A stretch of 64,000 nucleotides of DNA from Vulcanimicrobiota bacterium. GTDB taxonomy: Bacteria > Vulcanimicrobiota > Vulcanimicrobiia > Vulcanimicrobiales > Vulcanimicrobiaceae. Shown one piece after another: positions 21,801 to 24,800 of this stretch. The DNA is taken from positions 64,001 to 128,000 of the forward strand of contig CAWGBN010000006.1 in NCBI GenBank assembly GCA_963820825.1. Reading direction: 5' to 3'. Each line of letters begins with the position of its first letter. Within the stretch, counting starts at the first letter, position 1. Made by a program: the position numbers.

Positions 21801-24800
21801 ACGAGCAGCACCACGACGAAGACGATGCCGCCCATTGTCGGCGTTCCCGTCTTGGTTTGATGGGTTTCGGGAGCGTCTTCGTAGGCGCGCTGGCGCACCT
21901 CGAGGCGGCCGAGGATCGCGAGCAGCGCCGCGGTCGTGAGTGCGGCGACGAGAAAGCCGGCGAGAACCCAGAGACCGAGCGTCGCCCACGACGGATTGCT
22001 CACGACGGCGCCTCGAGCAGCGGATTCGGCCCGCTGGCGCGCCATTTCAGCACCACGATCGGCGTCTGCTCGTCGCTGTTGCCGTGGGGATTGTCGAGCA
22101 GCGTCGCTTCCACGCTTGTCGCGCGGACGCCGGTCGAACACCCCAGCACCTTCGCTCGTCCGAGATCGTTCACATCGACCACCGCGCAAGCGATGCCGGT
22201 CTGCTCTTGGACGAGGCGTGCGAAGCCGGCGGCGTCGCGCGGCGCGAAGACGATCGCACGCTCGTACGGCGGCATCGTCCCGGTGTAACCGTCGAAGGCC
22301 GCAATTGCTTCGCCCATTACCTCGTAGAAGGCGCCGCGCCGGCCGACGATCCGGCCGGCAAGCTGCAGCAGCGTCGCGTAGACGACCTTCCACGTTCCGA
22401 CCCGATCGATGACGAGCTGGACCGACTCCGGCTGACTGATCGTCGCCATCGGATCGGCGCGCCGCGAGAGTGCGAAGGCCAGGCGCGACGGGCGAACGTA
22501 CTCGGCGGCGAGCAGCTCGCCTTGCGCGATCGCAACGGCGGTCTCCGAAACGGTGATGACGTCACCCGGTCGCGCGATGCCGCGCACCGCGCGCGCGATC
22601 GATGCGACGAGATCGTCGCCGGGGCAAACGAGCGGCGTTCGGATGGGGATCGCGGTCAGCCCGGCCGGCACCTCCGGGCGGGTTACGAGCAGACCGCGCG
22701 TTGCAAGGCTCACGTGCGCAACTCTTCGACGATCTCTTCCAATTTGTATCTGCGCGAGCCCTTCAAGAGGACGACGTCGTCGGGTCGAACGTGCTCGCGC
22801 AGCCATCGTGCCGCTTCGGAGTTCGTAGCGATCTGAACGATCTGGCGGTCGGTGAGACCGCCGCGCTGCGCGCCCCGCCGCAGATCGGCGGCATAATCTC
22901 CGCTCACCAGAAGCACGTCGACGCGCGCCGCCGCGTGAGCGCCGACGCGCTCGTGCAGCGCGCGCGACTCCTCGCCGAGCTCGGCCATCGAGGCGAGCAC
23001 CGCAATATGGCGCGCCGCCGTCTCGCCGGCAAAGGCGTCGAGTGCGGCAATCATCCCGTTGGCGTTGGCATTGTACGCATCGTAGATTAGTTGAATACCG
23101 TGCAGCGCGAGACGATCGTAGCGCCCTTGCGGTAGGCGCAGATCCGGGATCAGCGCGATGAGCGGTTCGAGCGGCACCTCGAGCTCGATCGCGCCCGCAA
23201 TCGCGGCCGCGAGATTCGCGCGGTTGTGCACTCCCGGCACCCGCACGTCCAACGCGAGCTCGACGCGCTCGCTGCCGGTACGATGGAGGAGACGCCGGTT
23301 GCCGAGCACGGTATACGCCGATCCCGCCAATGCGTGCTCTTCGATCGGCTCTTCCTCAACGGAGAACCAGTGCGGCGCACGAGCGAGCGTCACGGCGCGA
23401 CGGCGCGACGCTTCGTCGCCCGCGTTGAGCACCGCGCGCGCTCCGCGCGCAAAGAGTCCCCACTTCGTCTCCTCGAGACGCTCGCGCGAACGCATGATCT
23501 CCACGTGCGCGTCGCCGACGTTGGTGAGGATGCCGGCTTCGGGGCGAGCGATCTCGACGAGCGCCGCGACGTCGCCGTAATGGCGGGCGCCCATCTCGAC
23601 GACGAGCACGTCGTGGGCCTCGTTCGACGCGCGTAACAAGAGTTTGCTGACGCCGATCTCGTTGTTCTCGTTCTCGGGCGTGGCCAGGATACGCTCGCCG
23701 AACTTTGCCGCGAGCAACTGCGCGAGGAACGCTTTGGTCGTCGTCTTGCCGGTGCTGCCGGTAACGGCGATGACTCGGCCGCGAAAGCACCCGCGCGCCG
23801 CTCCCGCAAGCGCCATGTAGGCCGCCGTCGTATCGCGCACGAGCATCGTCGCGATACCCGGCACGCGCGCTTCGGGCCGGTCGACGACGAGCATCGAGGC
23901 GCCTCGCCGCACCGCCTCCGCAGCGTAATCGTGACCGTCGAACCGCTCGCCGCGCAACGCGACGAAGGTCTCGCCGGGTCGAATCGTCCGCGTATCGGTG
24001 TTCGCGCGAAGCGTCGCCGGTGCGGTTTGCCCGTCCACGAGCTTCGCCGAGGTTGCCGCGATTGCCGAATCGAGCGGAACGTTCATCGCAGCGCCCCGCG
24101 CGCGGCGAGTGCTTCGCGCACGACCGCGCCGTCGTCGAACGGCAAGACGCGATCGCCGACGATTTGATAGGTTTCGTGCCCCTTCCCGGCGACGAGCACC
24201 ACGTCACCGGAACGGGCTTCGGCGATCGCTCGTTCGATCGCACGCCGGCGGTCGAGCTCCACGACATAATCTCGCCTGCCGATTCCGGCGGCGATCGCAT
24301 CGACGATTGCTTGCGGCGCTTCGGAACGCGGATTGTCGCTGGTGAGGTAGATGCGATCGGCGAGCCGCGCCGCGACCGCGCCCATCTCCGGGCGCTTTCC
24401 CCGATCGCGATCTCCGCCGCAGCCGAAGACGACGGCGATCCTGCCGTTCGCCGTCTCGCGCAGCGACTGCAGCGCCGATTCGAGCGCGTCGGGCGTGTGC
24501 GCGTAATCGACGACGACCGCGACGTCGCCGCCGGCGTGCCGCTCCATCCGGCCCGGAACGCGCGCGATCTGCGCGAGCGCCTGCGCGCTCGTGCCGTCGT
24601 CGATCCCGAAGCAGCGCGCGACGCCGATTGCGGCCAACGCGTTCCAAACGTTGAAACGCCCCGCCAGCGGAAGCTCGTACCGCCGTCCGTCGACGACGAA
24701 GCGGCTCGACCCCGCTTCGACGACGATCTCTTTCGGAACGAGGCTCGCATCGCGCTCCATACCGTAGGTGATCACCTCGCGTCCGTCGCGGCGCAGCTCC

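Follow-up and report, generated by a model that had tools for sequence, protein, structure and literature searches.

A CofE-fold protein independent of F420 and encoded between murF and mraY in Eremiobacteria, with a probable role in cell-wall building

Introduction

Among bacterial gene pairs, the murF-mraY junction is one of the best conserved. MurT/GatD, the AsnB-type LtsA/AsnB1, and the amidotransferase-paired side-chain ligases are families that act on peptidoglycan, and they modify stem carboxylates of precursors still in the cytoplasm, after the Mur ligases and before flipping. Some relatives of the protein described here are fused to Asn-synthase-type amidotransferases, but these enzymes have no sequence or fold relation to it, and their genes do not lie between murF and mraY. 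By fold, the closest described system is CofE, the coenzyme F420-0:L-glutamate ligase, which depends on GTP and on Mn or Mg and works as a dimer whose interface holds the active site. According to PMC10861534, CofE binds F420 through a G153-C155 segment and through R234 of the partner chain, an arginine that stacks on the isoalloxazine, and an analogy of CofE-type chemistry with that of the Mur ligases and folylpolyglutamate synthase (FPGS) is drawn in PMC8498797 and PMC10861534. The gene examined here, called X, lies in a 64,000-nucleotide stretch of an Eremiobacteria genome (the window), and its product is compared with these systems in sequence, fold, and genomic context.

Gene X in the dcw operon

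The coordinates of X and its neighbours are collected in Table 1. The Pfam domains around X follow the order FtsI, MurE, MurF, X, MraY, MurD, FtsW, MurG, and MurC, and the translation of murE contains a DNPR motif, which we take to be a marker of the meso-DAP type. A genome-wide survey's note had described a 237-aa gene wedged between murF and mraY with 4-base overlaps on both sides, and direct reading of the sequence confirms this, with GTGA shared at each junction. An alternative start is provided by an upstream ATG at 22806, which would give 268 aa; the orthologue alignments mostly start at or near the GTG.

Table 1. Features at the murF-X-mraY locus (positions in the window)
Feature	Position	Strand	Basis
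Gene X (237-aa CofE-fold protein; F420-independent paralogue family)	22000..22713	-	ORF and translation, GTG start
X start GTG / murF stop TGA overlap, shared GTGA	22710..22713	-	Direct sequence reading
mraY start GTG / X stop TGA overlap, shared GTGA	22000..22003	-	Direct sequence reading
murF (UDP-MurNAc-tripeptide:D-Ala-D-Ala ligase), 458 aa, immediately upstream of X	22710..24086	-	Mur_ligase, Mur_ligase_M, Mur_ligase_C domains
mraY (phospho-MurNAc-pentapeptide translocase), 323 aa, immediately downstream of X	21032..22003	-	Glycos_transf_4, 115 bits
murE, context	24083..25618	-	Three Mur ligase domains; DNPR motif in translation
murD, context, start not fixed	19635..21050	-	MurD-like_N, Mur_ligase_M, Mur_ligase_C domains
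ftsW, murG, murC, context, starts not fixed	16015..19834	-	FTSW_RODA_SPOVE, Glyco_transf_28, Mur ligase domains
ftsI-type class B PBP, context	25542..27281	-	Transpeptidase and PBP_dimer domains

Relation to CofE in sequence and fold

X matches Pfam PF01996 with 46.7 bits (gathering score 25), its residues 24-105 covering model positions 2-81 of 218; this is the same part of the model as noted earlier, at a score higher than the 44.3 bits given then. The CofE equivalog models are not reached, X scoring 30.4 bits both against TIGR01916 (cut-off 180.65), of which only model positions ~5-83 match, and against NF009809 (cut-off 274). In a sequence search of the PDB, the best chains are those of CofE (7uld, 2g9i, and 2phn; E 0.006), aligned over residues 26-91 of X. 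The likeness extends much further in structure. With an AlphaFold2 model built from 30 homologues (pLDDT 90.9), Foldseek finds 2phn_A at E 1.9e-10, TM 0.60, and 22% identity, the next unrelated entry standing at E 0.45, and VIA-align superposes 185 residues on 2phn with Z 15.6 and an rmsd of 3.1 Å, the next entry having Z 4.2. The match spans residues 18-235, which bears out the earlier claim of a CofE fold across the entire protein, and CofE is the sole structural match. X thus belongs to the PF01996 superfamily by gathering score and fold. A search of the ESM Atlas returned nothing beyond the X family itself, and no Pfam match to Mur_ligase_M or Mur_ligase_C was found at E <= 1, which places X outside the Mur ligase family.

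X and CofE have in common the N-terminal P-x-x-G-D-D-L and G-D-x-x-x-x strand motifs, Q/E-G-R, R-(R/H)-G, and the Asp of D-(S/T), but X is only ~20-24% identical to CofE. The residues were compared by aligning 30 X-family sequences with six true CofE sequences in hhalign (probability 98%), the CofE set coming from a single phylum, with fragments of the A. fulgidus chain added. In this alignment, the CofE-invariant Lys of SKAEGR is replaced by Ile62 and the Glu by Gln64, FGRPWR gives way to N-D-L-G, the G-R of D-(S/T)-x-G-R becomes D-L, and the helix bearing E207 and K212 is deleted. D180 aligns with the invariant Asp of D-(S/T)-x-G-R and is the only residue kept of the set tested, which comprised the Lys and Glu of SKAEGR, D-(S/T)-x-G-R, and the Glu of the C-terminal helix. 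Among the CofE residues changed in X, some presumably have roles in GTP or metal binding. The F420-binding G153-C155 segment corresponds to D183-L184-G185, and the C-terminal tail with R234 has no counterpart, as X stops near residue 226 of 2phn in the VIA-align superposition. Since several CofE-invariant residues are missing, ligase chemistry can only be inferred for X.

The X family has conserved features of its own. Five alignments show the motifs SE-x-VAI-x-QG, G-x-FY, IDxxxGT-x-PP, VD-x-ND-L, and NP-x-G-N/Q-x-x-E/Q-Q-T-P, and the invariant or near-invariant polar residues are T26, D51, Q64, D141, T146, D180, N182, D183, N208, N212, and T217. As judged from sequence, the crowding of invariant acidic and amide residues, one of them the Asp common with CofE, suggests a metal site.

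Independence from F420

Automatic annotation names relatives of X in public records as coenzyme F420-0:L-glutamate ligase, and such an identity would agree with the passed gathering score of PF01996 and with the fold. It is contradicted by the low equivalog score, by the missing F420 pathway, and by the coexistence of X with true CofE. In the source genome (85.4% complete), X is the sole PF01996 match, and no CofD and no CofC or CofG over the cut-offs were found; the CofH-like match is MqnC, with 460.7 bits against a cut-off of 428.1. Of the remaining F420 pathway, none of CofD/FbiA, CofC, and FO synthase passes its cut-off in this genome. X-family genes occur in all 151 Eremiobacterota genomes sampled. 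True CofE over the TIGR01916 cut-off occurs in 33 of them, each carrying X too, and CofD-like matches (E <= 1e-20; 16 over the cut-off) occur in the same 33, often on the CofE contig. Neither true CofE nor a CofD-like match was found in any of the 93 genomes of the window's class (families f1-f3), which agrees with the earlier statement that the lineage lacks CofD. In a quick maximum-likelihood tree, the six true CofE sequences separate from the 61 rows of the X family at SH-aLRT 100; the same support joins the dcw-type X sequences and the MurF fusion in one clade. X therefore differs from CofE in occurring without the F420 pathway, and beside true CofE where the pathway exists. Together with the lack of a counterpart to the R234 tail, whose role is described in PMC10861534, these data make it hardly credible that X is the F420 ligase of the organism, and they strongly support the earlier reading of X as independent of F420.

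Linkage to murF and mraY in the class

The gene order was surveyed in the best 80 genome loci from a narrow X alignment, all of them close relatives. The gene murF precedes X at 77 loci, the other three lacking DNA on that side, and mraY follows X at 79, the remaining locus being cut off. At most of the 63 full loci there is no gap between the murF stop and the projected start of X, which overlap or touch, -4 being the commonest value. In four of four genomes of one genus, murF and X are joined in frame with no stop between them, and a 736-aa representative of the X family (P0005) contains the Mur ligase domains and PF01996. No genus but this one gave a confirmed fusion, eight further candidates from genomes of family f1 (open frames of 631-829 aa) being rejected as out-of-frame read-through in GC-rich DNA. 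Mean identity over the loci is 67.0% for X, 57.6% for MurF, and 64.9% for MraY, and X is conserved above MurF in every one of the 63 loci. A complex prediction for MurF and X, with alignments of 25 rows each, gave a score of 0.00 and a mark of 0.32, which speaks neither for nor against their binding.

X probably has an undescribed job in cell-wall building, because it is strongly conserved and separates two core genes of cell-wall precursor synthesis, in a soil bacterium making no F420. On balance, we favour a role on cell-wall precursors. The earlier designation as a cell-wall enzyme is supported for the window's class, by gene order and the MurF-X fusion, to which the contexts of relatives in other phyla add, and within the phylum this support is confined to the class; our neighbour counts likewise agree with those of the survey's note at the level of the class and depart from them at that of the phylum.

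Membrane-anchored homologues in other classes

In the other classes of Eremiobacterota, the X homologue has ~400 aa and is membrane-anchored, and mur genes were found near it at none of 12 loci, which speaks against the survey's proposal that the phylum as a whole modifies its stem peptide. These relatives have an N-terminal membrane helix with four Lys and Arg residues before it and 76 after it, and the count after the helix exceeds that before it in 24 of 25 sequences; by the positive-inside rule, the domain would therefore lie on the cytoplasmic side. Their N-terminal domain is a beta-sandwich whose best match is the luminal domain of TMEM106B (Z 9.5), and it gives no functional lead because the fold is generic, with many matches at Z 7-8. 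A conserved neighbour of the anchored form, Y, was not found in the source genome, in a single query that shows little.

The company of the anchored form is of another kind. X is co-operonic with FolD at two of the 12 loci (L111 and L113), is followed by a homocysteine-methyltransferase/MTHFR (MetH/MTHFR-type) fusion gene at one (L112), and stands beside ECF transporter genes at four (L104, L107, L108, and L113); FolD, MTHFR-type, or ECF company was counted at seven of the 12, L113 having both FolD and a transporter. As a separate observation, searches of the 151 genomes failed to find FolC in 41 and FolP in 52, all of these genomes lying outside the window's class and all carrying X.

Such data bear on the possibility that X is a ligase adding gamma-glutamyl residues to some cofactor besides F420, for instance one of folate type, as a CofE-fold analogue of FolC/FPGS whose gene merely rides in the cell-wall operon here. 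Cofactor glutamylation, convergent with FPGS (PMC10861534), is all the chemistry known for the fold, and the folate-related neighbours, the missing FolC and FolP, and one relative fused to an M20 peptidase would fit as well. In the class itself there is no folate gap to fill, because canonical FolC and FolP are present in the source genome, where they are adjacent on contig C9, and in all 93 other genomes of the class. Moreover, X also occurs in FolC-bearing lineages, a folate role would account neither for the MurF-X fusion nor for the position of X by murB, PBP, and mraZ genes in other phyla, and CofE-invariant residues are missing from X. A cofactor ligase is thus an unlikely identity for X, one still worth weighing.

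Relatives in other phyla and their partners

The survey's note had called X an orphan, a label that does not survive the count of 666 family representatives at E <= 0.001, which have many domain architectures. Out of 150 listed representatives, 92 with a length of at least 290 aa were scanned. Six are Amidase_3-X fusions and six are fusions of an Asn-synthase-type (AsnB-like) domain with X; a PgdA-type deacetylase, an M20 peptidase, a GNAT domain, and a CDP-alcohol phosphatidyltransferase each occur once as partner, and TPR families are found in 13 of the 92. A single relative (P0144) is fused to an adenylate kinase. Other phyla were covered by 15 dereplicated metagenome loci, at which X neighbours murB (two loci), a class A PBP (PBP1a; three), and mraZ-mraW (one), and in one case each it is fused to PlsY, follows dxr-rseP, or lies near a PAP2 phosphatase. 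An NDK gene adjoins the X relative at one locus (L174).

That the partners are mostly amide-bond hydrolases (Amidase_3, the PgdA-type deacetylase, and the M20 peptidase) raises the idea of a cell-wall precursor enzyme with chemistry other than ligation, for instance the editing or proof-reading of UDP-MurNAc-peptides by a metal-dependent hydrolase or transferase. The murF-X-mraY order, the fusion with MurF, the envelope neighbours in other phyla, and the altered CofE ligase motifs would all be in keeping with it. Nevertheless, we know of no member of the CofE fold with an activity other than ligation, no hydrolase-type motif was recognised in X, and no structural neighbour but CofE exceeds Z 4.2, so that this chemistry appears quite improbable.

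The loss of the CofE-invariant Lys and Arg motifs and of the Glu-bearing helix could instead mean that X is a non-catalytic or regulatory pseudo-enzyme, which would hold a nucleotide-linked precursor and couple MurF to MraY at the membrane. Relatives that are membrane-tethered, bear TPR repeats (13/92), or are fused to the integral membrane transferases PlsY and CDP-alcohol phosphatidyltransferase point in this direction, as does the translational coupling of X to both neighbours. The conservation of X above MurF in all 63 loci and the dense invariant acidic and amide residues, with the Asp common to CofE, are at odds with it, the latter suggesting a metal site, and the NDK neighbour and the adenylate-kinase fusion, single cases both, hint at nucleotide turnover. 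We consider a purely binding function rather unlikely.

A possible step between MurF and MraY

As the best explanation of these data, to which we give somewhat less than an even chance, X belongs to a distinct, F420-independent branch of the CofE fold and acts on UDP-MurNAc-pentapeptide in this class, the ligase chemistry of its fold being favoured. Members of the branch would have their place of action in the cytoplasm, on or close to the inner face of the membrane. The Eremiobacteria form would have lost the membrane anchor and then been built into the murF-X-mraY core, with translational coupling on both sides. Most likely, X would act on the MurF product, UDP-MurNAc-pentapeptide, before MraY transfers it to the carrier lipid. 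X may use a nucleoside triphosphate and a divalent metal to activate a free stem carboxylate, either the alpha-carboxyl of D-Glu or the epsilon-carboxyl of meso-DAP, to which a small amine or an amino acid would be joined.

On this best reading, X would resemble the Mur ligases and FolC/FPGS by analogy, in the nucleotide-dependent addition of an amine to the carboxylate of a UDP-MurNAc-peptide or a cofactor via an acyl phosphate, and it has its operon in common with the Mur ligases and one polypeptide in common with MurF in one genus; the folds, however, are unrelated, X has no Mur_ligase domain, and its ligase activity is putative. The survey's note had gone further and named X a nucleotide-dependent amino-acid ligase on UDP-MurNAc-pentapeptide. 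With the SKAEGR Lys, FGRPWR, and the Glu-bearing helix lost, this goes too far as a statement, and we retain it as something that we infer from context: ligase chemistry on the stem peptide is, taken by itself, doubtful. Likewise tentative is the wider proposal of a class-wide extra step from MurF to MraY, in which a CofE-fold enzyme would modify UDP-MurNAc-pentapeptide, for example with a glutamate-like residue or an amine on a free carboxylate, to give a non-canonical stem, and in which several phyla would use the wider family as carboxylate ligases close to the membrane that serve envelope precursors, and FolC-less relatives possibly for folate.

Literature searches found nothing that ties CofE to peptidoglycan and murF, and nothing on Eremiobacterota and murF; judged by titles and the starts of abstracts, the papers listed for "CofE-like" proteins treat F420, and those on PF01996 contain nothing on the X clade. 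By microscopy, the sole member of the phylum in culture has "thin peptidoglycan", and the available part of its description (PMC9758169) mentions neither peptidoglycan chemistry nor diaminopimelic acid. Since this member is in culture (PMC9758169), the cell-wall role is directly testable.

Conclusions

A third gene at the murF-mraY junction, equally conserved and doubly coupled, implies a new step or control point in the synthesis of lipid I, in a phylum of abundant but barely cultured soil bacteria. If the reading is true, the CofE fold would have a second biological role, and the name "coenzyme F420-0:L-glutamate ligase" would be corrected on relatives in F420-less organisms, such as those in Oscillospiraceae records. 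In addition, the relatives without FolC and FolP that keep X by FolD and vitamin transporters may represent a non-orthologous replacement of folylpolyglutamate synthase.

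Gene Order and Conservation in the Window's Class

The gene under study, here called X, belongs to a minus-strand division/cell-wall (dcw) cluster that runs rsmH, ftsI-type PBP, murE, murF, X, mraY, murD, ftsW, murG, and murC, and Pfam confirms each of its neighbours (see the table). The tetranucleotide GTGA at 22713-22710 joins the start of X to the stop of murF, and a second GTGA at 22003-22000 joins the start of mraY to the stop of X. The figures that the genome-wide survey's note gave for X were reproduced, save that PF01996 scores 46.7 bits where the note has 44.3; this match spans model positions 2-81 of 218, and a sequence search finds CofE chains at E 0.006. 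X stays below the equivalog model TIGR01916 of CofE, the coenzyme F420-0:L-glutamate ligase (30.4 bits vs. a cut-off of 180.65).

Coordinates of X, its cluster neighbours, and the divergent partner of the membrane-anchored form of X
Feature	Sequence	Position	Strand	Remark
ftsI-type PBP	window	25542-27281	-	Pfam
murE	window	24083-25618	-	Pfam
murF	window	22710-24086	-	Pfam
X	window	22000-22713	-	237 aa, GTG start
mraY	window	21032-22003	-	Pfam
divergent partner	L106	3678-5408		no Pfam family
divergent partner	L107	7282-8919		no Pfam family
divergent partner	L108	3905-5365		no Pfam family
divergent partner	L110	7341-9056		no Pfam family
divergent partner	L111	7257-8966		no Pfam family
divergent partner	L113	3657-5102		no Pfam family
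divergent partner	L114	7346-9505		no Pfam family

At the head of the cluster, rsmH (27312-28634, minus strand) looks frameshifted, with a break near 28075-28090; Pfam spans just model positions 3-187 of 309 in its 440-aa ORF, the C-terminal RsmH half lies in another frame (ORF 27761-28486), the frame switches at a short G run, and the tail of the long ORF is FtsL-like. Either an indel in the assembly or a genuine break could account for this. On contig C8 of the same genome, G000, a neighbour of mqnC (~54310-55247; L006-L008) matches MqnE as three fragments lying in different frames and with one internal TGA, a second apparent frameshift that suggests indel errors in the assembly.

X was found by protein search in 40 of 41 relatives, the single miss being a 68%-complete genome. 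Among the 80 best loci of a species-level genome collection, the gene immediately upstream of X is murF in 77 and the gene immediately downstream is mraY in 79, and the four exceptions are loci cut at a contig end. The closest public loci have titles such as Candidatus Cybelea sp., Candidatus Eremiobacteraeota bacterium, Baltobacteraceae, and Vulcanimicrobiota; six of the 80 (L040, L042, L068, L072, L078, and L094) bear the names of other phyla and several just that of a 'bacterium', which we take as metagenome-bin labels. All three genes are complete in 63 loci; there, X exceeds MurF in conservation every time and MraY in 47, the mean identities to the window being 67.0% (X), 57.6% (MurF), and 64.9% (MraY), and the projected start of X overlaps the murF stop in most of them, the commonest value being -4. 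Collectively, X is a real gene under strong constraint, and throughout one class, the Eremiobacteria, it keeps a fixed position between murF and mraY, translationally coupled to both. In all four genomes of one genus (g5, family f3), murF and X form a single frame of 742-810 aa with no intervening stop, and the 736-aa representative P0005 has PF01996 after its three Mur ligase domains. Because eight other long open frames, from family f1, proved on checking not to be MurF-X fusions, the natural fusion is probably one event.

Fold and Active Site

The AlphaFold2 model of X, built from 30 homologues, has a pLDDT of 90.9. Foldseek recovers CofE alone with this model (2phn_A, E 1.9e-10, TM 0.60, 22% identity; next unrelated entry E 0.45), and an exhaustive VIA-align comparison over 48,161 chains places residues 18-235 of the model on residues 2-226 of the 2phn chain (Z 15.6, rmsd 3.1 Å, 185 residues; next match Z 4.2). 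By both comparisons, X has the CofE fold over its full length.

A profile-profile alignment of 30 X-family sequences with six true CofE (those over the TIGR01916 cut-off) from genomes of the same phylum, at a probability of 98%, portrays X as a trimmed CofE. Both share the N-terminal P-x-x-G-D-D-L, a G-D strand, Q/E-G-R, R-(R/H)-G, and an Asp (D180). The invariant SKAEGR of CofE is A-I-A-Q-G-(R/E) in X, with Lys replaced by Ile62 and Glu by Gln64, D-S-F-G-R-P-W-R is replaced by D180-x-N-D-L-G, the helix that bears the invariant Glu207 and Lys212 has been lost from X between N-P-x-G-N and T-P-I-V, and the C-terminal tail is absent. CofE binds F420 through F92, G153-C155, and R234 of the partner chain (PMC10861534); X has D183-L184-G185 in place of the G153-C155 segment and no equivalent of R234. 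Invariant polar residues particular to the X family are T26, D141, T146, N182, D183, N208, N212, and T217. This residue pattern is easier to reconcile with a remodelled, metal-dependent site for catalysis or binding than with a decayed site. X is rather unlikely to be a non-catalytic coupling or regulatory protein, and quite improbable as an enzyme with another chemistry.

Independence from F420

X is the sole PF01996 match in G000 (85.4% complete), in which CofD was not found, nor CofC or CofG over their respective cut-offs; the gene in it that resembles CofH is the futalosine-pathway gene MqnC (460.7 bits vs. a cut-off of 428.1). We compared 151 genomes of the phylum, each at least 85% complete, in tallies that include the unpublished genome G036, without which each count shifts by one. 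The X-family profile matches all 151, true CofE occurs in 33, and CofD-like matches (E <= 1e-20) occur in exactly those 33, of which 16 are over the cut-off, often sharing a contig with CofE; both were absent from all 93 genomes of families f1-f3, which make up the window's class. Therefore, the F420 pathway, where present, has its own CofE, and X exists beside it. In a quick maximum-likelihood tree, six true CofE are split from 61 X-family rows with an SH-aLRT of 100. X is thus independent of F420, and the F420 ligase reading, which relatives in Oscillospiraceae bins carry as their public name ('coenzyme F420-0:L-glutamate ligase'), is scarcely credible. In F420-bearing lineages, cofE and a cofD-like gene lie within ~2 kb (e.g., G091:C20, G123:C225, G102:C74, and G112:C118), and in locus L118 a putative F420-type luciferase-like ORF follows cofE.

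Membrane-Anchored Form and Folate

In 12 loci from 12 genomes of other classes, X takes an anchored form of ~400 aa, with no mur gene or mraY within ~6 kb in any of them. The dcw placement of X, with the order murF-X-mraY, thus belongs to the window's class and does not extend to the phylum. The model of a 404-aa member (pLDDT 91.0) consists of a helix (2-25), a generic beta-sandwich (30-168), and the X domain (193-394). Across 25 anchored proteins, the 15 residues preceding the helix contain 4 Lys and Arg in all and the 15 following it 76, the latter count being larger in 24 of 25, which by the positive-inside rule places the X domain on the cytoplasmic face, tethered to the membrane.

The anchored gene is co-operonic with FolD in L111 (4602-5516) and L113 (6673-7554; 4-base overlap), is followed by a homocysteine-methyltransferase/MTHFR fusion in L112 (6663-8540), and has ECF-transporter genes beside it in L104, L107, L108, and L113. 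Of the 151 genomes, 41 gave no FolC and 52 no FolP, and all of these lie outside the window's class. Given these gaps and neighbours, a glutamyl ligase of folate type has to be taken seriously as an alternative for the anchored form, and in those other classes X may be a non-orthologous folylpolyglutamate synthase. The same reading is weaker for the window's X, since FolC and FolP occur in all 94 genomes of its class, including G000, where their genes are adjacent on contig C9; a cofactor ligase of folate type riding in a cell-wall operon is judged unlikely.

In seven of the 12 loci, anchored X has a conserved divergent partner of no known family (see the table). These homologous proteins of 480-720 aa have a beta-rich N-terminal part and a charged, proline-rich tail, and one query did not find them in G000. 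In family f10, the second gene downstream of X, encoded on its strand, is that of an acylphosphatase (L105:3020-3307 and L109:4624-4917); this would be relevant if acyl-phosphate intermediates were formed by X.

Envelope Company and Proposed Role

A HMMER search of 1.84 billion representatives returned 666 proteins at E <= 0.001. The Pfam scan covered the 92 representatives of at least 290 aa among 150 listed; many are ~400 aa long and combine an N-terminal membrane helix with an unassigned domain, 13 carry TPR repeats, six are Amidase_3-X, six have parts of an asparagine-synthase-type amidotransferase, and one each joins X to MurF, a PgdA-type deacetylase, an M20 peptidase, GNAT, adenylate kinase, and a CDP-alcohol phosphatidyltransferase. 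Another four, in which X reads through into MraY, resemble miscalls or frameshifts. Relatives in Xenobia, Limnochordales, and Bacillota bins are named 'hypothetical protein'.

Within two genes of stand-alone relatives in 15 dereplicated metagenome loci of other phyla, we found murB (L166 and L172), a class A PBP (L162, L171, and L174), mraZ-mraW (L194), dxr-rseP (L179), and a PAP2 phosphatase (L198), and in L156 (5323-6732) X is fused to PlsY (G3P_acyltransf). L166/L172 and L162/L171 are related pairs, leaving fewer independent cases; even so, envelope genes near X are far above the level of chance neighbours. The X family thus keeps company with envelope-precursor enzymes in several phyla. 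A CDP-alcohol phosphatidyltransferase gene lies two genes upstream of the fusion with PlsY in L156, and P0128 is itself a CDP-alcohol phosphatidyltransferase-X fusion; the partner in both fusions is an integral membrane phospholipid enzyme.

The literature search found no account of the X clade or of any gene lodged between murF and mraY, and the description of the phylum's only cultured member, in the passages covered, gives ultrastructure and no peptidoglycan chemistry (PMC9758169). On balance, a role of X in cell-wall precursor synthesis is somewhat favoured, and such a role specifically by ligation is a tentative proposal. X would handle the MurF product ahead of MraY, and it might do so through the ligation typical of its fold, at a free carboxylate of the stem peptide.
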